Shown in pieces: positions 13,295 to 22,802 of a stretch of 33,031 nt of DNA. The notes below the pieces were generated by a model. It ran no database searches and was not told the origin of the DNA. It was given only the letters and a program-made list of their open reading frames with translations. The position numbers and the translations under genes were made by a program. The DNA comes from a virus (Duplodnaviria; Caudoviricetes), in the IMG/VR virus record IMGVR_UViG_3300049455_000014, positions 1 to 33,031 of that record, one strand, 5' to 3'. Each line of letters starts with the position of its first letter. The first letter of the stretch is position 1.

Positions 13295-13915
13295 ATGGAA
13301 CCTAATGGTACTCTTTCCAGAAATCAAGAGCGGTTCTTACAAGCACTGCTACTTGGCAAATCTATAGCTGATTCTTATAAACACGCTGGTATCAGTAAGT
13401 CAACTGCATTCCGTTGGATTGAAGAGCCTGTATTTGTTGCAGAGCGCAAACGACGTGAATCAGAACTAGCCAGGTTAGAGCAGGAAGAGATCACACGTGT
13501 TCTGACATCTGGCTATGCTTTGATGCATAGGCGTGTAGAGGCTCTTGATAAGCTCTCCAAGAAGCTTGAAGCATACATGGAAGATGAACACAACATCTGG
13601 CTTCCTGATGTGAAGAGTATTGGAACAGGGCCAACTGCTGAACGTGTTGATTTAGTTCAGTTCAACGATAGGCTCATAAGTGAATACAGAGCAACCTTTG
13701 CCGATCTTGCATCAGAGCTTGGCCAGCGTGTCAAGAAGCAAGAGATAGAACACTCTGGTTTGATTGAACTCTTAAATGCTGAACATGCATCCCTCGTAGC
13801 AGATCTGGAAGCAATACCTGATGGCAGTCCTGTTGAAATCGAAACAGAGAATACAGATACCGGAGCCGATTCCGGTACACCTGGCTCGGAAGATAGCGAA
13901 CCTTTCGCCAACTGA
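13295..13915 (+). CDS. terS: Terminase small subunit (putative)
   Basis: N-terminal HTH (LSRNQERFLQALL...AGISKSTAFRW); overlaps the TerL start. Confidence 0.75.
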   Translation: MEPNGTLSRNQERFLQALLLGKSIADSYKHAGISKSTAFRWIEEPVFVAERKRRESELARLEQEEITRVLTSGYALMHRRVEALDKLSKKLEAYMEDEHNIWLPDVKSIGTGPTAERVDLVQFNDRLISEYRATFADLASELGQRVKKQEIEHSGLIELLNAEHASLVADLEAIPDGSPVEIETENTDTGADSGTPGSEDSEPFAN

Positions 13916-15275
13916 CAGACGGGCTTTTATCCTGCGTCAATCCGTAGCGAAAGCCTTAACAATCAAATACACCTGGGCTGCATGGGCGCGTGATAAACAA
14001 CTCTGGCAAATTGAAGCGCCGGAAGAGTGGGAAACGTGGCTTCATCTAGCAGGGAGAGGCTACGGTAAAACTCGCACAGGCTCAGAGCAGACTATTGAAT
14101 GGGCATTAGATGATCCAGAGGGTCACATAGCCTTAGTAGGTAGAACAGTAGCGGATGTCAGAGATGTCATGATAGGCGGGAAATCTGGCATACTCAAATG
14201 TTCCCCTCCCTGGTTTCGTCCTGAGTACATTCCTAGTAAGCGCCATCTCACCTGGCCAAACGGCTGTACAGCTACAACCTACTCAGCAGATCAACCAAAC
14301 CAACTGAGAGGGCCACAACATACAAAAGCGTGGGGAGATGAACGCGCTAGTTGGCAGTATGACGATGCATATGACCAATTACAATTTGGCTTGCGTCTAG
14401 GTAGAAACCCACAGCTCATACTCACTACAACACCCAGGGCTACAGAAGCAATCAAGGAATTAATCAAGGAACCTGGCACGCATACAACCTATGGCACAAC
14501 CTATGAGAATACTGCCAATCTCACACGTAAGTTTTTCACGACGATTGAACGCAAGTATGGCGGCACTAGACTAGGCTTACAGGAACTACTAGGTCGGATA
14601 CTAGACGATAATCCAGGCGCGCTCTGGAAACGCTCAAACATTGATAAGTTGCGAGTGCGCTATGGAGAAGTACCAGAGTTAAAGCGTGTAGTCGTAGCAG
14701 TTGATCCAGCAGTGAAATCACCTGATGCTGTCAAAGCCGCTCGAGGGGAACTTGACGAAAGCGTAGCTGAAACTGGCATTGTTGTTTGTGGCTTAGGCGT
14801 CAACAATGAGGGTTATGTCATTGCTGACTACAGTATGCAAGGAACACCACTCGAATGGGCGCAACAGGTAGCAATGGCTTATGAGATACATCAAGCTGAT
14901 GCTGTCATAGGTGAAGTGAACAACGGAGGGGATTTAGTTGAGTCAAACATCAGAACAGTCAACAAAAACATTTCTTACATTGCTGTCAGAGCTACAAGAG
15001 GTAAACAAGTACGAGCTGAACCTGTCAGCTCCCTTTATCAACAAGGTCGTGTGCACCATGTTGGAACATTGCCTGACCTTGAAGATCAATGCTGCAACTG
15101 GATTCCAGGAGACAAAAGTCCTGACAGATTAGATGCGCTTGTGTGGGGATTTACTCGTTTGATGGTTGGTCAGGAGTTAGTTGGCGGTATGATGTTAGAT
15201 ACCGATGTGAGAGAGCAAGAAGAGGTAGAAGAGGATGAGCAGGAAGAGCAATCGGCATACGCGCTATTCCGGTAG
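13821..15275 (+). CDS. terL: Terminase large subunit
   Basis: AGRGYGKT Walker A, LRGPQ, WGDE, TTTP, VAVDP nuclease motif, GEVNNGG, SPDRLDA. Confidence 0.95.
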   Translation: MAVLLKSKQRIQIPEPIPVHLARKIANLSPTDRRAFILRQSVAKALTIKYTWAAWARDKQLWQIEAPEEWETWLHLAGRGYGKTRTGSEQTIEWALDDPEGHIALVGRTVADVRDVMIGGKSGILKCSPPWFRPEYIPSKRHLTWPNGCTATTYSADQPNQLRGPQHTKAWGDERASWQYDDAYDQLQFGLRLGRNPQLILTTTPRATEAIKELIKEPGTHTTYGTTYENTANLTRKFFTTIERKYGGTRLGLQELLGRILDDNPGALWKRSNIDKLRVRYGEVPELKRVVVAVDPAVKSPDAVKAARGELDESVAETGIVVCGLGVNNEGYVIADYSMQGTPLEWAQQVAMAYEIHQADAVIGEVNNGGDLVESNIRTVNKNISYIAVRATRGKQVRAEPVSSLYQQGRVHHVGTLPDLEDQCCNWIPGDKSPDRLDALVWGFTRLMVGQELVGGMMLDTDVREQEEVEEDEQEEQSAYALFR

Positions 15276-17463
15276 TAGCGGGAACAATAATCAAAACAAA
15301 CCGCAAATAGTCATACATCCATCGCAAGAAGAAAATGAACAAATCTTCATACAGCATGGCAATCTTGCGCTTGTAAGAGAAGCTCGTCCGCGAAAAACAC
15401 CTGCTCCAACTTCTACAGCCAATCTCAGAAACAAAGCTCAATCTCTTTCACTTGACTGGGATGATAATGAAGCTCTCCAAATACAGAACCAACGACCTCT
15501 TACAGAAGCTGAACGCAAAGAAACGCTGTACAGTGTCTATGTTGGCAATACCTGGGTAAGTTCGTGTGTTGACGTCATCTCCAAGCGTTTCACCTCTGGT
15601 GGATGGCACATGGAAGAAGTAGAGCAGGATAAAGGCGATCTGAAGAATAAAGACACGCTGAAAAACTTCTTGCTCAACATCAATGACGATGAAGACTTTC
15701 TCCAGTTCTTGCGTGGCGCAGCTGACGACCTGGATATCTACGGTGAATCTTACGCTGAAATCATCCCTGGCCCAGATGGACTACCCGTACAACTCGTTTC
15801 CATCGATTGCGTCACTATGACCTATGAACTGGACGAACATGGTAATATCACCAAATACGTGCAAACACTGGTCAAGAGCAATAGAACCGTTGAATTTAAG
15901 CCGGAACAGATTATCAGATGGTGGCTCCCCTCCAAACGCGCTCGTAAAGTCGCATTCTCTCCAATTGAAAAAATGGTCAATCCAACCTATGCTGACAAGA
16001 ATATGGTGGACTGGGTACACATGTTCTTTAAGAAAGGCACGAGGCCCAGCACCTGGATTAAACTTGGCGATGATAGCGATATCGATGATGCTAGGCAGTA
16101 CCTCAAGTTCTACAAGGAAAACTATACAGGCGCACAAAACGCACATACTCCACAAATCGCTTATGGCGGAGCAACGATTAACGAGTATGGCAAAGGTTCA
16201 ATTGACGTCGACTTTGGTAAAGGCCGTTTGTTCACCCGAGAAGAAGTATTAGCAGGCTATGGTGTACCTCCGGCAACCATCGGTATTATCGAAAGTGGCA
16301 ACATTGGCTCAGGAACAGGTGAAGATCAAGATAAAGCACTGAGGAATAATACCGTTGACCCTATCAAACAGTTGATCTTAGAAAAGTTCAATAGGCGTGT
16401 AGTGGTGGGAGGATTTGGGATCACTGACTGGGTAGTCACAACCAGATATGCTGACTACCGTTCAGATGTGGAAATATCAGAGGTACAAAACAAACGTATC
16501 TTCTCAGGTGTCTCTACTCCAAACCAGGAAAGAATAGACGCTGGCAAAGCGCCATATCCAGATACAGGCGACACACCAATAGTTGTCGCAGGCAAAGAAA
16601 TATTGCCTCTTGAGCGTATAGACGACTTAGCGCAAGAGCAGAGAGACACATCAGATGTCACACTGCAAACACAAAAAGCCGCGCTTGATCTGGCACAAAC
16701 ACAAGCAGACAAAGCCAAACATCCAGACCCTGTGTCCCCTGCGTTGTCAAATGGACAACCTGGACAACAAAAAGCACAGGGAGGTCAACCTGATGCAAAT
16801 CAAAAGCAAGTCAAGCAACAAATGCAACCTCCGCAAGATGAAAATGAACATTTCATACGAGAAGATAAGAATACAGGTATCATGGTTGCGTTTATGCTTG
16901 ATGCTCAAACAGCAAAGAAGCTTGCACTTCCAGGTGGAGAATCACCTAAAGATATGCATATCACATTAGCTTATCTAGGTGATAAGGTTGATTTTACAGG
17001 TGATGTTGCCAAACTGAAAAAAGAACTGACATCATTTGCATCTGAAGCAATACCGCTCAAAGGTACAACGGGTGGATTAGGGCGTTTCACGCCGTCTGAC
17101 AGTTCAGATAACACATCACCGATTGTTGCACTTGTAAATATTCCAGGTATCCAGAAATGGCGTACTCAGTTAGTGAAAAGACTTGAAATTGCAGGGGCTA
17201 CTGTTGCATCAGATTTTGAATTTACTCCACATATCACTCTTGATTATATTGATGCTGATGCACAGTCACCTATCAAGGATGTACCAAATGTTCCACTTGA
17301 CTTTGATACGCTCTGGTTATGTATCGGAGATGAACGTTACTCGTTCAAAGTTGGCGATGAACAATATCCAGATGAACAATATCCAAATGAATCTTTTTTC
17401 GTGAGAGCCTCCGACAATGGAGGCAACCTGCACCTGAACAGCTTAAATGTGAACAAGAACTAG
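15235..17463 (+). CDS. Portal protein with C-terminal 2H phosphoesterase domain
   Basis: Follows TerL. Portal motifs WVSSCVDVIS, DIYGESY, GVPPATIG, TPNQER; Q-rich linker; two HITL motifs at about H575 and H666. Confidence 0.9.
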   Translation: MSRKSNRHTRYSGSSGNNNQNKPQIVIHPSQEENEQIFIQHGNLALVREARPRKTPAPTSTANLRNKAQSLSLDWDDNEALQIQNQRPLTEAERKETLYSVYVGNTWVSSCVDVISKRFTSGGWHMEEVEQDKGDLKNKDTLKNFLLNINDDEDFLQFLRGAADDLDIYGESYAEIIPGPDGLPVQLVSIDCVTMTYELDEHGNITKYVQTLVKSNRTVEFKPEQIIRWWLPSKRARKVAFSPIEKMVNPTYADKNMVDWVHMFFKKGTRPSTWIKLGDDSDIDDARQYLKFYKENYTGAQNAHTPQIAYGGATINEYGKGSIDVDFGKGRLFTREEVLAGYGVPPATIGIIESGNIGSGTGEDQDKALRNNTVDPIKQLILEKFNRRVVVGGFGITDWVVTTRYADYRSDVEISEVQNKRIFSGVSTPNQERIDAGKAPYPDTGDTPIVVAGKEILPLERIDDLAQEQRDTSDVTLQTQKAALDLAQTQADKAKHPDPVSPALSNGQPGQQKAQGGQPDANQKQVKQQMQPPQDENEHFIREDKNTGIMVAFMLDAQTAKKLALPGGESPKDMHITLAYLGDKVDFTGDVAKLKKELTSFASEAIPLKGTTGGLGRFTPSDSSDNTSPIVALVNIPGIQKWRTQLVKRLEIAGATVASDFEFTPHITLDYIDADAQSPIKDVPNVPLDFDTLWLCIGDERYSFKVGDEQYPDEQYPNESFFVRASDNGGNLHLNSLNVNKN
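17394..17424 (+). promoter_or_regulatory. Putative programmed -1 ribosomal frameshift site
   Basis: T TTT TTC heptamer in the portal frame, 6-nt spacer, then the hairpin GCCTCC-GACAAT-GGAGGC. Confidence 0.75.
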
Positions 17464-18035
17464 AAAAGTATCTAGCTTATCTCATTAAAAGCGCTCGTTC
17501 AGGAAAAACGCTTCTTGCTCTTGATCCTGGTGAAAATGTTATCGCACACGTTGCAACCTATTTACAGCAAGCACAGAAGCTAGGCAAGCAGTACGCTACT
17601 CTTTACATAAAGCAAAACAAAGAGTCAGTGATTGGTACTGACTTGGGCGCAAGCTTGTTAGATAGAGCTAAGAACTTAATTCAGAGAGCACTGCAATGGG
17701 CAAAGGATTTATTCACATCGAAAGTAGATGATCTTGGAACTGATGCCAGTGAAGAGGATATTCAAGCGGCATTAGATGATGTAGCTCTCAATGTAGCAGA
17801 AAACTTGGGACTGACTGAAATTCAAGATGTCGTTGAAGAGGCAGTACAGGATGAATTTATAGCATCAGGCATAGGGCAAATTGAATGTGTGAATGAGCCT
17901 GGCGCATGCCCTCCGTGTGTTGAGAATGCAGATGCTGGTCCAATTAATATAGGAGAATCGTTTCCAAGTGGGCATACACGAGCGCCATTTCATAATTGTT
18001 GTCGATGCCATACAGTACCTGCGGGGGAGGGATAA
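17400..18035 (+). CDS. MuF/SPP1 gp7-like minor head morphogenesis domain, probably made as a -1 frameshift extension of the portal
   Basis: C-terminal ACPPC..NA..GPI.IGESFPSG...PFHNCCRC motif. The frame is open from 17391; the track's GTG 17628 lacks a clear SD. Confidence 0.8.
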   Translation, partial: RESLRQWRQPAPEQLKCEQELEKYLAYLIKSARSGKTLLALDPGENVIAHVATYLQQAQKLGKQYATLYIKQNKESVIGTDLGASLLDRAKNLIQRALQWAKDLFTSKVDDLGTDASEEDIQAALDDVALNVAENLGLTEIQDVVEEAVQDEFIASGIGQIECVNEPGACPPCVENADAGPINIGESFPSGHTRAPFHNCCRCHTVPAGEG

Positions 18036-18042
18036 GGAAGAA

Positions 18043-18348
18043 ATGAATGAAGACAAAGCAATACATGAGCTAAAACGCATAGCAGATGCATTAGAGAAGC
18101 AAAATAACACCAATCAGGAATGGTTAGAACTTAATAAAAAATGGCATGAAGAAGCTGAGGTCTTGACTGAAAAGCGATATCAGGAGCATAGAGCACATGC
18201 CGAGCGTGAGTTCAAGTCTGCTCAAGAGTGGCACGATGAGGCAGAGCGGCTGAATGAACTACGCTTTCAAGAGCATAGGGAACGTGAGCAAACGATGCTA
18301 ATGGCGTATCTTGCTACTCTCAGATCAAAGGAGGAAGAGAAGCAATGA
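18043..18348 (+). CDS. Coiled-coil protein with internal 29-aa repeat
   Basis: WHEEAEVLTEKRYQEHR / WHDEAERLNELRFQEHR; AAGGA SD. Confidence 0.75.
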   Translation: MNEDKAIHELKRIADALEKQNNTNQEWLELNKKWHEEAEVLTEKRYQEHRAHAEREFKSAQEWHDEAERLNELRFQEHREREQTMLMAYLATLRSKEEEKQ

Positions 18349-18740
18349 GTAGAGCAACTATACATCTTCCGGCAAACATCGGAGAAAAGATAGCGAATGA
18401 TGTAGCTTCTGGCATGGGATCATGGTATTTTGTCATTGCACAAACAGGTATACTTGTGGCATGGATTATATTAAACTCGGTTGGTTGGTTCATCTTTAAG
18501 TGGGATGCGTATCCTTTTATCGCAATGAACCTGTTATTATCCTGTCAAGCGGCCTATGCAGCTCCACTTATTCTCATGAGTTCTAACAGAGCGGCGGTAC
18601 GTGACAAAAAACGCGATGATCTTGAGTCAGATGAAGTGCAATCTTTATTTGATAATCACTTGCTTTTGCTCAAAATAAATGATCAGCAACTTGAGATTTT
18701 GAAAGAGTTACGAGGGACAAAAACAACAAAGGTAAAATGA
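18345..18740 (+). CDS. DUF1003-like membrane protein
   Basis: GEKIANDVASGMGSW.F...WDAYPFIAMNLLLSCQAAYAAPLILMSSNR...RD. Confidence 0.85.
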   Translation: MSRATIHLPANIGEKIANDVASGMGSWYFVIAQTGILVAWIILNSVGWFIFKWDAYPFIAMNLLLSCQAAYAAPLILMSSNRAAVRDKKRDDLESDEVQSLFDNHLLLLKINDQQLEILKELRGTKTTKVK

Positions 18741-18746
18741 GGATGT

Positions 18747-19136
18747 ATGGAATCTGAACATAGACAGAACGGCATTATTCGTTTCTCATGGCGATTAGCG
18801 CAACAGATTATGCCAGAGATCAAGCTTAATGGTTTATATGTAAATGGTAGGTTGCTTGCACAAGAAGATTTGCGAGTAACTGGCTTCTTTGTTGAGTTAC
18901 ACAAGCGTTTACTTTTGCCAGAATCATATGAGGTTATCGGTATTTTCTTTGAACATCTGCGTAGTTGTTGGGATGTGTTGGTGTATTCACCAGAAATCAA
19001 AGAACCTAAAGAGGGCTTATATTTGCCACATGTAGAGCCAATCTATACTTGTGATATGTATGGGAATAACAAGAAATTGGTACGTATGCATATTGAATAT
19101 GAGAATTCTAATGACAGAGTATTGAGGGTAGACTAA
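18747..19136 (+). CDS. Hypothetical protein
   Basis: 129-aa ORF with GAGG SD. Confidence 0.75.
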   Translation: MESEHRQNGIIRFSWRLAQQIMPEIKLNGLYVNGRLLAQEDLRVTGFFVELHKRLLLPESYEVIGIFFEHLRSCWDVLVYSPEIKEPKEGLYLPHVEPIYTCDMYGNNKKLVRMHIEYENSNDRVLRVD

Positions 19137-19354
19137 TGACTGAATCTGTACGTTATCTATTAGCCAGCGCTAGCATTAACGAGCTATCAGAGGATGATAT
19201 CAAGCTCATTGAAGATCATCCTCATCCTGAAGAAGTGATTCAGTTGCTTGTTCAATACAAACAGGCAACAATGAAGAAAGAGCATTATACCCTGGAACAA
19301 GTTGCTGAAAGTTTCAAACTCGCAATGCAGATAGCAAAAGAATTGAAAACTTGA
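19136..19354 (+). CDS. Hypothetical protein
   Basis: TAATG coupling to the previous gene. Confidence 0.65.
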   Translation: MTESVRYLLASASINELSEDDIKLIEDHPHPEEVIQLLVQYKQATMKKEHYTLEQVAESFKLAMQIAKELKT

Positions 19355-19680: not shown

Positions 19681-21291
19681 GTGTCTAATCGTAAGCTTAC
19701 AAAGAATCTCTATGAGGCCAAATGGACTAGCGCATTAAAGGCGGCTTATTTTAAGTCACATCCTGAAAATTGCGCTGGCCCAGATGGCTCATACCCTATC
19801 AAAGATGCTTCAGATGTTGGCGATGCCTGGGATTTAGCAGGACATGCAGCATCGCCCGATGCAGTACGAGCGAAAATCAAATCTATTGCTGCAAGAATGG
19901 GCTTCACATCTGGACTCCCTGCCACTGCATCAGCAAAAGAAAACGTCAACGAATCCACTCCATTCACTCCTAAAGCCAGAGTAGCCACATTCAAAACAAA
20001 GTTCTTGACTGATGGCGCTCAATCCAGGAACGGGCGCACCTATCCACAAGAGGCAGTCAACAAGCTCGTCAGCTCAGGTCAGCTACAACTTGAAACCGCC
20101 GGTTCCAATCCGCTCAATTGTTATATTTCACATTCTGAAGCTGACGATGATAATGGTTTGAAAATTGCTGGCAAGATCACAAAGGTATGGAAGTCTGGTA
20201 GTGATGCATGGGCAAACATCGAAATGCCAGATACCACTACAGGACGTGAAGCTGCAACGCTTGCAAAGTTTGGTGTCTTAAAAACTTCACTCAGAGCAAC
20301 GGGCGCTGAACTACGTATGTCTAAATCCGGGGGATTGCCTGAAGTATCAGGTGAGGGTTTACAGCTTCTAGGCATTGATTTCACATCCAAGCCGGGAGTT
20401 GAAACCGTCACAGTGGAGGATGTGATACTGGAAAGTTCTTCAAACCACACTTCACAAGATATCAATGAAATATTTGAGATGCCTGCTGAGTCTTTGTTGC
20501 TTGAAGAAGTTGTAGAGACTGAAGAAACACAAGAAGCTTCTTCAGATGGTCATACACTCATGATAGCTAACAAAAACGACATGCAAGCTATCCATGACCA
20601 CATTGCAATGGCTCAAGGCCGTTCTTGCGCTTCTGGCAGTATGGAAAATCAGGAAGCAGGACGTAAATTCTCAGCATCCACACAATCACAGCTTGACGCC
20701 GCTCACGATAAAACTGCTGAAGTCTTAGGGATTGAATGTGGTGGTTCCAGTAGTAGCGCAATGGGAGATGACGATATGACAGGCGACGACGATCCAAACG
20801 AAAACACCGATCTTGAAAAAGATCATGTTGATAATCAAACTTTAGACAATGTAGAAACACCCGAGGAGGAAACGGACACCATGACACCAGAGGAAATGAT
20901 TCAGGCATTAAAGGAGGCCGGGTTTTCCGTTGAGCCTCCTAAAACCGCAGAAGAGAAGCTTGACGAAGCGCTCAATGCCAAGCTTGCAGCAATGCAAGAA
21001 AGCTTCAATGCCAAACTGGAAGAGGCAAAAAACCAGTTGATTGCAGCTGGACCTAAGCCCCAACGTCAGTCACTTGTAGAGGGAAACACTACTACTACTA
21101 CTACTCAGACTCAGAACAATCCCAAGATTTATCGCAAAGGCTCTTATCTTCAGGAACAGTTGAAAGGCTTGGACTGGGCAGAGCTTGCAGACAAAACCAT
21201 GCCGTTACCTGATGGTATTAATCCAGCGTACTTGCTGCAAGAATTTGGGCATTTGTACCTCATGAAGACTGGCTACTACGACCAGGATTAA
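19681..21291 (+). CDS. Prohead protease-scaffold fusion with extra N-terminal domain
   Basis: SRNGRTYP, ISH, TSLRATG and GIDFTSKPG protease-like motifs; acidic linker; coiled-coil C-terminus; located before the capsid gene. Confidence 0.8.
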   Translation: MSNRKLTKNLYEAKWTSALKAAYFKSHPENCAGPDGSYPIKDASDVGDAWDLAGHAASPDAVRAKIKSIAARMGFTSGLPATASAKENVNESTPFTPKARVATFKTKFLTDGAQSRNGRTYPQEAVNKLVSSGQLQLETAGSNPLNCYISHSEADDDNGLKIAGKITKVWKSGSDAWANIEMPDTTTGREAATLAKFGVLKTSLRATGAELRMSKSGGLPEVSGEGLQLLGIDFTSKPGVETVTVEDVILESSSNHTSQDINEIFEMPAESLLLEEVVETEETQEASSDGHTLMIANKNDMQAIHDHIAMAQGRSCASGSMENQEAGRKFSASTQSQLDAAHDKTAEVLGIECGGSSSSAMGDDDMTGDDDPNENTDLEKDHVDNQTLDNVETPEEETDTMTPEEMIQALKEAGFSVEPPKTAEEKLDEALNAKLAAMQESFNAKLEEAKNQLIAAGPKPQRQSLVEGNTTTTTTQTQNNPKIYRKGSYLQEQLKGLDWAELADKTMPLPDGINPAYLLQEFGHLYLMKTGYYDQD

Positions 21292-21347
21292 TGAGACTTT
21301 ACGAATAGACACATAGGGGATATGTGGAGAGGGAAGAAAGAAATACT

Positions 21348-22802
21348 ATGGCAACTCTTGAAGACTTGAGGGAAGCGTACACCACTGGTACAGCCGGTAC
21401 AGCAGCTCCTCTTATTAATAAGGTCATCGACAAACTCTTGCTGATTGACCAGCGCAAATATGCGCCAATGCGCCGAGCACTCCCACGTCAAACCTGGGAA
21501 ACCGACATCTTTTACTTTAATGCTCAAACCGCTTTGCCACAAGCGCAGATGACCACTGAAAATCCACCGACAACTGGTACAGGCTCAGTGGCAGCTACTA
21601 ACTCAACCTACACACAGGGCAGCTTTCCAATCAAGCACATGCAAGTCAATCTTGACATTCCAGCATTCTCTCAGCAAGTGGCTCAAGCTAACGGCAATTT
21701 GCGAGATTTGGAACTGACGGCTGCTGGCAAGTCCTATTCCTGGCTTGAAGAAATCATTCACTACTTTGGAAGCGCAACCGGTACGCTGAATACCAAGCGC
21801 CCACAGTGGGACGGATTTGATATCCAGGTAGCTGGCGTCAACAAGATCGATGCTGCAACTCAACTCCTTTCGCTTCAGATGATGGACAACGCACTTGATT
21901 CTGTCAAAGGCGTTGCTGCAACTGACCTGGGAGATGATTGGTTCTATCTCATGAGCGGCAAAATGCAATCCAGGTTGAATGGCCTTTTTATCAATCAGCA
22001 ACAGTACCTCAGAGGTGTATCTCGCATCTTCGCTCGCGATGACTTCGGGAATCCAAATAACGCCGTATCGGACAACTATCTTGATGGTGGCGTGGAAGTT
22101 GCAACCTATCGCAATATTCCAATCGTGCTTTCAAACTTCATGGGTAACGTTGGTTCAAGTGCGACCGGCGGTTTGACCAATACTTCCAACAACACTGGTT
22201 CAGCCGGTGGCTTGTTAGCTTCTCATACCTACTACTACATGCTAGAAGCGGTGACACGTTACGGTCTCATGGCTGCTTCTGTTGAGTATTCCAAATCACC
22301 AAATGCTGATGGAAATAGCATCATCTTCTCCTGGACAACTCCAACGCCTACCGATGCCTTTGGCAACACCATCGATATTCTTGGCTATCGCTTGCATCGT
22401 TCTGATAATACAAGTGGCGCTGAAAGCCTCTATGCGCTTATCGCTGGCAAAGATGCATCAGACGCGGCGATCACGTCATTTACTGATACTGGCCTACCAG
22501 TCACTCCGAGCGCGGCAGATACCACTTCAACCTGGTGTACCGTTGCGAAATCTGGCGCTAATGCTGCTTCTGATGGCGTGACATTCCCGCGTGTACAGTC
22601 AGGTACTCAGGTTGTTGAAGACATCTTCCTGGTGCCTCGCACTCCTGAATTCGCAGTGGTTCCAGTGGTCAACGAGATGACCATGAAAGCTTTGGCGCAG
22701 GTCAACGCACGTAGCAATCAGTACGCCATGATTGGCGATCAAACTTTTGCTTTGAGAAGTGGCGCATTTGCTGCAAAAATCAGCCGTGTACGTGCCAACT
22801 AG
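21348..22802 (+). CDS. Major capsid protein with inserted Fn3-like domain
   Basis: Position and size; HK97-fold-like segments (PLINKVID, WDGFDIQ, VATYRNIPIV); insertion YYY..AV..YG...FSWT...GYRLHRS...FTDTG. Confidence 0.85.
   Translation: MATLEDLREAYTTGTAGTAAPLINKVIDKLLLIDQRKYAPMRRALPRQTWETDIFYFNAQTALPQAQMTTENPPTTGTGSVAATNSTYTQGSFPIKHMQVNLDIPAFSQQVAQANGNLRDLELTAAGKSYSWLEEIIHYFGSATGTLNTKRPQWDGFDIQVAGVNKIDAATQLLSLQMMDNALDSVKGVAATDLGDDWFYLMSGKMQSRLNGLFINQQQYLRGVSRIFARDDFGNPNNAVSDNYLDGGVEVATYRNIPIVLSNFMGNVGSSATGGLTNTSNNTGSAGGLLASHTYYYMLEAVTRYGLMAASVEYSKSPNADGNSIIFSWTTPTPTDAFGNTIDILGYRLHRSDNTSGAESLYALIAGKDASDAAITSFTDTGLPVTPSAADTTSTWCTVAKSGANAASDGVTFPRVQSGTQVVEDIFLVPRTPEFAVVPVVNEMTMKALAQVNARSNQYAMIGDQTFALRSGAFAAKISRVRAN

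Follow-up and report, generated by a model that had tools for sequence, protein, structure and literature searches.

The stretch analysed here, referred to as the window, is the 33,031-nucleotide (nt) sequence of IMG/VR virus record IMGVR_UViG_3300049455_000014 (Duplodnaviria; Caudoviricetes), an incomplete virus record (46% complete) of soil origin that also encodes an integrase and a Rha-like regulator. We investigated the 3' end of its portal gene, where a second open reading frame (ORF) for a MuF/gp7-like head morphogenesis domain overlaps the portal frame at an offset of -1, and where the DNA carries what appears to be a programmed -1 ribosomal frameshift signal. All features of the window given below lie on the + strand.

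The portal gene and its 3' end

The portal gene (15235..17463, taken as the 0 frame) encodes 742 amino acids (aa) and is of the HK97 type, matching PF04860 at 102 bits against a cut-off of 39 (E 4e-29) and PHROG 12 at E 4e-45; TIGR01537 scored 73 bits, below its cut-off of 112. Every portal subunit carries a 2H phosphoesterase domain (16867..17352; PF13563, E 9e-9) with both HxT motifs (His575 and His666), which are invariant across 25 relatives. The predicted structure of this domain (predicted local distance difference test, pLDDT, 93) has a LigT-like fold, with LigT as the nearest match at a template modelling (TM) score of 0.68, and the two features that mark the 2H phosphoesterase superfamily, a pair of HxT/S motifs and the 2H fold, are both present. 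Assignment of the domain as an Acb1 anti-CBASS nuclease was rejected (PF23474 at 17 bits against 27; Acb1 at rank 41, TM 0.48).

Near the end of the portal gene, the -1 frame is closed by a TGA at 17388..17390. Just downstream lies the heptamer T TTT TTC (17394..17400), a canonical X XXY YYZ slippery sequence that falls inside the ORF overlap and in frame with the portal (0-frame codons TCT TTT TTC). It is followed by a 6-nt spacer (17401..17406) and a GC-rich hairpin of 6-7 base pairs (bp) with the arms GCCTCC/GGAGGC (17407..17424), a predicted 3' stimulator whose distance falls within the 5-9 nt typical of -1 frameshift sites. The 80-nt region folds with a minimum free energy of -18.9 kcal/mol (z -2.4), and 3 of 200 shuffled sequences folded equally well. 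A transcription terminator was considered and rejected: the T run stands before the hairpin, and no terminator-like site was called there. The portal frame stops at a TAG (17461..17463), 20 codons past the heptamer, and the -1 ORF (17391..18035) runs for 211 codons after the shift to a TAA at 18033-18035. No ATG occurs anywhere in this ORF, its earliest ATG, GTG or TTG is the GTG at 17628, 78 codons past the site, and no near-cognate start is found within its first 25 codons. A shift at the heptamer would give a fusion of 722 + 211 = 933 aa. Every coordinate in a preliminary description of this DNA proved correct base for base; the CPPC and HNCCRC motifs that it reported in the -1 product are both present, its count of about 79 startless codons agrees with the position of the first GTG, and its 742-aa portal-2H and ~933-aa portal-2H-MuF proteins agree in length as predicted products.

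The combined pattern of heptamer and hairpin was found once in the window, against 0.06 expected by chance (6 of 100 shuffles). This test is weak because the pattern was taken from this very site, and the homologues carry the real weight. Contigs of sequencing run X1 (depth 11.7) match the locus without differences; this run is possibly the source of the DNA and does not serve as an independent check. Immediately before the slip site, the window has a 15-nt tandem duplication (17356..17391, 2.4 copies), at the position where relatives carry a short Cys/His module.

The -1 product gave weak PHROG matches to head morphogenesis and minor head proteins (E 7e-7 to 3e-4). It had no Pfam or NCBIfam match, and neither PF04233 nor TIGR01641 scored above its cut-off; two in-frame homologues (P0069 and P0087) match MuF models, also below cut-off. 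The model of the product (pLDDT 86, built from an 8-row alignment) predicts confident helices over residues 11-70, upstream of the first GTG. It gave 34 Foldseek matches at E<=0.001 among predicted viral structures, most of the named ones being minor capsid or head morphogenesis proteins, to which it aligns over its whole length, and no match among solved structures. The features of a MuF/gp7 protein are found together here, namely a position directly after the portal gene, a helical domain ending in a Cys/His module, and a predicted minor-head-like fold, so the product would be expected to work like MuF/gp7 despite missing the curated cut-offs. It does not qualify as a MuF polymorphic toxin, as the ORF ends 7 residues past the Cys/His motif.

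Relatives of the window's portal

Portal searches yielded 100 loci, which together with the window made 101. The portal core is held by 78 of these, and the 70 that are uncut before the portal stop form 43 clusters at 95% identity. A profile search sorted the clusters by the state of their MuF-type domain: it lies in the -1 frame at the end of the portal gene in 8, is fused in frame as a full or near-full domain in 8, is present only as a short in-frame Cys/His module in 9, and is encoded by a separate, second-type MuF gene further downstream in 4. In the remaining 14 clusters this search found no MuF-type domain, two of them having only ~200 nt of downstream sequence. Wherever the domain lay in another frame at the portal end, the offset was -1 and T TTT TTC stood in frame in the overlap, identical in 8/8 clusters. 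A canonical heptamer was present in the last 90 nt of the portal gene in 2 of the 35 other clusters, neither with a stem (Fisher p 3e-7, uncorrected for kinship). The -1 ORF holds the full MuF domain in seven of the eight clusters, and in the eighth, L020, only the Cys/His module plus other sequence.

The hairpin is conserved along with the heptamer. The best stem begins 5-7 nt past the heptamer in all 8 clusters, and under a rule of at least 5 bp, at least 4 GC pairs and a start 4-9 nt past the heptamer, a stem was found at 7 of 8 sites, compared to 1 of 23 internal in-frame heptamers and 304 of 2731 (11%) arbitrary positions. The arms covary among relatives, changing together from GCCTCC/GGAGGC to GCCGCC/GGCGGC and GCCGTC/GACGGC; the 5' arm is matched by its exact complement in its own sequence in 6 of 8 cases, compared to 2 of 42 cross pairs in which the arms differ. 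The preliminary description had proposed comparing homologues for exactly these properties, and the comparison came out in its favor: the T6C run keeps the same register with no T7, the -1 offset is kept, and the hairpin shows compensatory changes. It had also held that in-frame fusions or an independent MuF start among homologues would speak against a frameshift. Both do occur in other branches, as alternative states and not as the rule.

Among five close relatives, identity in the overlap was 0.91 when read as the -1 protein versus 0.69 when read as the 0-frame protein. From the portal stop to the GTG at 17628, single differences were distributed 29:29:135 over the -1 codon positions (135 of 193 at third positions), and the same stretch is free of stops in the -1 frame versus 3-8 stops in each other frame. 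The first start codons of relatives are scattered over codons 19-106 and are not shared. The alignment of in-frame portal(-2H)-MuF proteins with the -1 product begins at residue 1-8 of the latter, and W9, P12, Q16 and E20 are invariant in 8 rows. Substitution patterns across these loci indicate selection on the -1 frame that begins at the slip site. The selection, the scattered starts, and the alignment from the first residues are therefore as a frameshift predicts, and not as an internal start would predict. Database entries of the MuF-like domain range from 134 to 220 aa with scattered start positions, and gene callers appear to truncate these proteins.

In-frame fusions of the same domains were found in P0016, P0087, L015 and L037, and P0016 has exactly the predicted order, portal-2H-MuF, in a single 988-aa protein. 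Since such fusions exist, the fused product would be a viable protein. It was observed that the slip site is kept while the domains upstream of it vary (portal only, portal+2H, portal+short module, or portal+2H+short module). A quick portal tree of 54 rows, from which L046 and one partial row were excluded, placed the 8 signal clusters at four positions: a five-member clade that includes the window, and L071, L020 and L018 separately, these three at 46-51% identity to the window.

Some further observations concern individual relatives. The closest four (L001 5684-5854, L004, L062 and L077) have a short MuF-type Cys/His module in frame and a full MuF domain in the -1 frame, so they encode two modules. 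L020 (3995-4816) has the same signal, with a -1 ORF made up of a short Cys/His module followed by an unrelated ~190-aa domain, which looks HAD-like; the site may carry different cargoes. At the C-termini of P0020, P0023, P0028 and P0054, PKA precedes the residues encoded elsewhere by the hairpin, a hint that these genes may have a C CCA AAR heptamer and the same hairpin. The tails of P0022 and P0059 (GKA/PKA) were rejected as other slippery sites, as these proteins group with L010, which has no MuF. In L061, the portal ORF is broken after 293 aa of core and is intact in near-identical cluster mates, probably reflecting an assembly error.

A single-protein locus search with the window's portal returned nothing, and a search for longer relatives using the -1 product alone returned none, although such proteins stood among the portal matches. 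Nine genome-contig matches to the portal motif were discarded as not portals, and no close cultured relative of the window's portal was found among annotated phages. In a Chloroflexota-centred genome sample, 1 of 401 matches (G148, unpublished); it was not used for any claim. Ktedonobacteraceae and Reticulibacter are the names attached to distant homologues of the portal (38-39% identity), and a Ktedonobacteria-like host is a guess only.

A second family of Mu-type portals

A motif scan of viral contigs that used the DNA signal alone, blind to protein, returned 15 matches: 6 in the window's portal family, 7 at the ends of Mu-type (PF06074) portal genes with a -1 ORF, 1 at a tail-chaperone-like gene pair, and 1 attributed to chance. 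Five of the seven -1 ORFs at Mu-type ends match PF04233 below cut-off. At L112 (2113-2738), the same heptamer and spacer stand at a gene pair read as a tail chaperone, with no family match.

We assembled a Mu-type set from the 80 top-ranked of 560 viral loci together with 9 loci found among 401 genomes in a Bacteroidota-centred sample, and 6 of 163 annotated phage records were examined. The set comprised 96 loci, 90 of them with sufficient downstream DNA, in 40 clusters at 90%. A MuF match was found in 36 of the 40 clusters, and in all 36 it took the form of a -1 overlap with a canonical heptamer; the other four, distant clusters, had no MuF match. Excluding 6 motif-picked clusters left 30, in which the heptamers were T TTT TTC (27), T TTT TTT (1), A AAT TTT (1) and G GGA AAG (1). 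The heptamer lies 9 nt before the stop in 29 of these 30, and a stem is present in 28, versus 3 of 38 internal heptamers. Hairpin arms pair with their own partner in 25 of 30 cases and in 39 of 618 cross pairs, and flips between GCCCC-first and GGGGC-first stems stay paired. Cultured Bacteroides phages carry the signal. Judging from these sequences, Mu-type portal/MuF junctions in Bacteroidota-type phages appear to carry the signal as a rule, a breadth that the preliminary description understated.

Annotated phages show other arrangements as well. In Peternella_1 and fF4, portal and MuF overlap at -1 with the heptamer A AAA AAA, and the annotated GTG starts lie further downstream. For the cultured Winogradskyella and Flavobacterium phages with A AAA AAA in this overlap (L217 3634-3760 and L219 3592-3637), the annotated GTG starts probably cut the MuF N-terminus. 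In pippi8-1 and FPSV-S1, MuF is a separate ATG gene in the +1 frame. Porphyromonas phage008a (L215 2393-4951, BK068090) has a single in-frame 852-aa portal-MuF gene whose linker keeps the FF and the hairpin-coded residues, as if a former frameshift site had become fixed, or as if a shift now truncated the fusion. Finally, the -1 MuF ORF of the Mu-type locus L111 (2146-3531) has a weak C-terminal match to CdiA_C; MuF-effector proteins may also arise via the shift.

Interpretation, alternatives and precedents

We consider it highly probable (roughly 0.88) that a programmed -1 ribosomal frameshift, real and used, fuses portal-2H to MuF at this locus. This is the interpretation given in the preliminary description, and the conserved signal, the covariation of the hairpin, the selection on the -1 frame, the startless ORF and the in-frame equivalents all support it. 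A ribosome paused by the hairpin 6 nt downstream would allow its two Phe tRNAs to re-pair one base back (tandem slippage), and two products would result, the 742-aa portal-2H protein and the predicted 933-aa portal-2H-MuF protein. Portals are 12-mers with a C-terminal crown that faces the head interior. The longer product would be the minor form and would co-assemble into the 12-subunit ring, so that the portal vertex would hold a few tethered MuF domains, probably within the head. By arithmetic, a shift rate of ~8-17% would give 1-2 MuF copies per ring. PMC4066793 gives U_UU.U_UU.C as one of the efficient -1 motifs in E. coli, provided that a 3' stimulator accompanies it.

We lean towards low-copy loading of MuF as the purpose of the frameshift. 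Low copy number is not a universal need because in-frame fusions exist, and this purpose is therefore less sure than the frameshift itself. The sub-stoichiometric MuF on the portal ring that the preliminary description envisaged is plausible, though not obligatory given those fusions.

Several observations weigh against these interpretations. The eight clusters with MuF in frame suggest that a ring can apparently bear 12 copies, and the argument from stoichiometry is the weaker for it. Five of the eight signal clusters belong to one close clade with the window, and because of this they represent about four independent lineages instead of eight; the Mu-type set, in turn, was ranked by likeness to one signal-bearing portal. 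Regarding the signal, L018 has a longer bulged stem that fails the strict rule, yet folds at -19 kcal/mol, and the L071 region is no more stable than its own shuffles (z 0.3). A Shine-Dalgarno (SD)-like stretch ~8-12 nt upstream is present in the other 7 clusters and absent in the window. In the Mu-type loci, a start codon lies within 20 codons in 11 of 30, two of these being ATG; L208 (G GGA AAG, no stem, a TTG 14 nt past the stop) was counted as doubtful, and the cultured Bacteroides phage BKO1-TP4 (PQ571270) has the full signal plus an annotated ATG, so a second route to free MuF may exist in these loci. L005 (1997-2016) has a 0-frame TGA overlapping a -1 ATG just before the heptamer, with an SD-like stretch upstream, and the corresponding site of L077 (2642-2661), which is >95% identical, has TTA instead. 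The two differ by one base, each variant was seen once among 220 loci, and the L005 layout could reflect either an error or a genuine switch to MuF as a separate, coupled gene.

Such layouts bear on the alternative that MuF is made as a separate protein, from the GTG at 17628 or by re-initiation near the portal stop, with the heptamer and hairpin left over or otherwise used. The TGA/ATG overlap of L005 would suit it, as would the ATG near the portal stop in BKO1-TP4 and L207, an ATC 6 nt past GGAGG in L083 and L062, the Met that relative P0102 has of its own, and the four clusters with separate second-type MuF genes. We nevertheless consider this reading unlikely. A start at 17628 would remove two confident helices and four invariant residues from a product whose codons 0-78 appear to be selected in the -1 frame, and the first 25 codons of the window's -1 ORF offer none of the starts searched for, near-cognate ones included. 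The ATC of L083 and L062 is not conserved, and the separate MuF genes have no slippery sites in their overlaps.

Slippage of RNA polymerase on the T6 run, which would add a U and produce the same fusion at the level of the transcript, is very unlikely in our assessment. The site is a homopolymer run, and Peternella_1 and fF4, two cultured relatives of the Mu-type set, have long A runs in the overlap, which would suit such a mechanism. Against this, six T's are short for polymerase slippage, for which 8-9 or more are usual, the run keeps a single codon phase and is spaced from its hairpin as a ribosomal site would be, and the A AAT TTT heptamer with a stem at L209 suits tRNA re-pairing and not a homopolymer mechanism. 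A third alternative, in which an assembly error or the recent loss of one base has disrupted an in-frame portal-2H-MuF gene, draws on the in-frame fusions found elsewhere. The homologues largely refute it and leave it extremely improbable, as 7 other clusters, assembled independently, show T6C and the -1 offset again, with a -1 ORF that is intact and appears selected.

The programmed frameshift proposed here has its closest known parallel in the tail chaperone pair G/GT of lambda and most long-tailed phages, including SPP1 gp17.5/17.5*, in which a heptamer also lies near the end of the first ORF and the second ORF is startless in the -1 frame. Passages of PMC5009743 and PMC6316719 describe a short and an extended product made in a fixed ratio, and give the putative gp17.5/17.5* site as UUUUUUC, the same heptamer as in the window. 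G/GT encodes chaperones and immediately precedes the tape measure gene, whereas the genes in the window are portal and MuF, stand in the head module between terminase and protease, and would yield parts of the virion instead of transient chaperones. Lactobacillus phage A2 major head protein, the MSTV1 major capsid protein (MCP)-Ig and SPP1 gp17.1* resemble the present case in that a fraction of a structural subunit bears an extra C-terminal domain, and some relatives fuse such capsid or tail extensions in frame instead (PMC11375127, PMC5009743 and PMC6316719). Those extensions decorate the outside of many-copy shells or tubes, whereas here the carrier is a single portal ring and the addition is MuF.

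For MuF itself, excerpts of PMC5576092 and PMC6316719 report that SPP1 gp7 binds the portal at 1-2 copies per capsid, that muf follows directly after the portal gene, and that gp7 aids the start of infection, particles without gp7 assembling with only ~25% being infectious. The tether of gp7 to the portal is non-covalent in SPP1, whereas here it would be covalent. In-frame portal-MuF fusions are described for Microbacterium phages (PMC7302621), and 2H-portal and 2H-MuF fusions in PMC5512222. SPP1 gp7 and the known portal-MuF cases are separate genes or full fusions, whereas the present fusion would be recoded and partial. The -1 signals of dnaX and the IS3 family, as outlined in PMC4066793, combine a heptamer with a 3' structure and an optional upstream SD-like stimulator, and an SD-like stretch is found in 7 of 8 clusters here; unlike in dnaX and IS3, the genes are different and the window itself lacks the SD-like stretch.

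As far as the consulted portions of this literature go, -1 frameshifts of tail chaperones and of capsid and tail extensions are known, as are in-frame portal-MuF and 2H-portal fusions. A portal-MuF frameshift was not found in open-licence PMC and bioRxiv main texts, with the supplement tables of PMC3711429 and PMC4066793 possibly bearing on novelty. The main texts of PMC5576092, PMC5512222 and PMC11699363 never use the word 'frameshift', and 'portal' occurs 0 times in the first 300,000 of 449,034 characters of the Atkins review and in the portion of the GeneTack screen text available to us. To what is known, the window's locus adds this predicted frameshift signal on an HK97-type portal of soil phages, accompanied by a 2H domain, in a family that shows all three gene states.

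We marginally favor a broader reading in which tailed phages would have, in addition to the tail-chaperone site, a second widespread recoding site at the portal-MuF junction, recurring in the distant HK97-type (soil) and Mu-type (Bacteroidota) portals and acting as a dosing device that loads a few portal-tethered copies of MuF and of any enzyme borne on it. The usual view is of a uniform portal ring, with MuF as a separate minor protein of poorly explained role and low copy number. With a conserved recoding site, portal rings would be mixed, and MuF copy number would have a simple mechanism that point changes at the site could tune. If true, many annotated MuF proteins, MuF-effector fusions included, have wrong N-termini. 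The presence of all three states (separate gene, frameshift, and in-frame fusion) in one family offers a natural series for the origin of recoding sites.

The surrounding genes of the window belong largely to the head module. The terminase large subunit gene (13821..15275; PF03237, PF17289) lies upstream, and long overlaps are seen between the small and large terminase genes (95 nt, 13821-13915) and between the large terminase and portal genes (41 nt, 15235-15275). A head maturation protease-like gene (19681..21291; PHROG 207, E 5e-8) lies downstream. Four small genes (17968-19354), one of them a DUF1003 gene, stand between MuF and the protease and interrupt the usual head gene order. A 492-aa gene at 21324-22802, with no Pfam or PHROG match, occupies the position of the major capsid gene.

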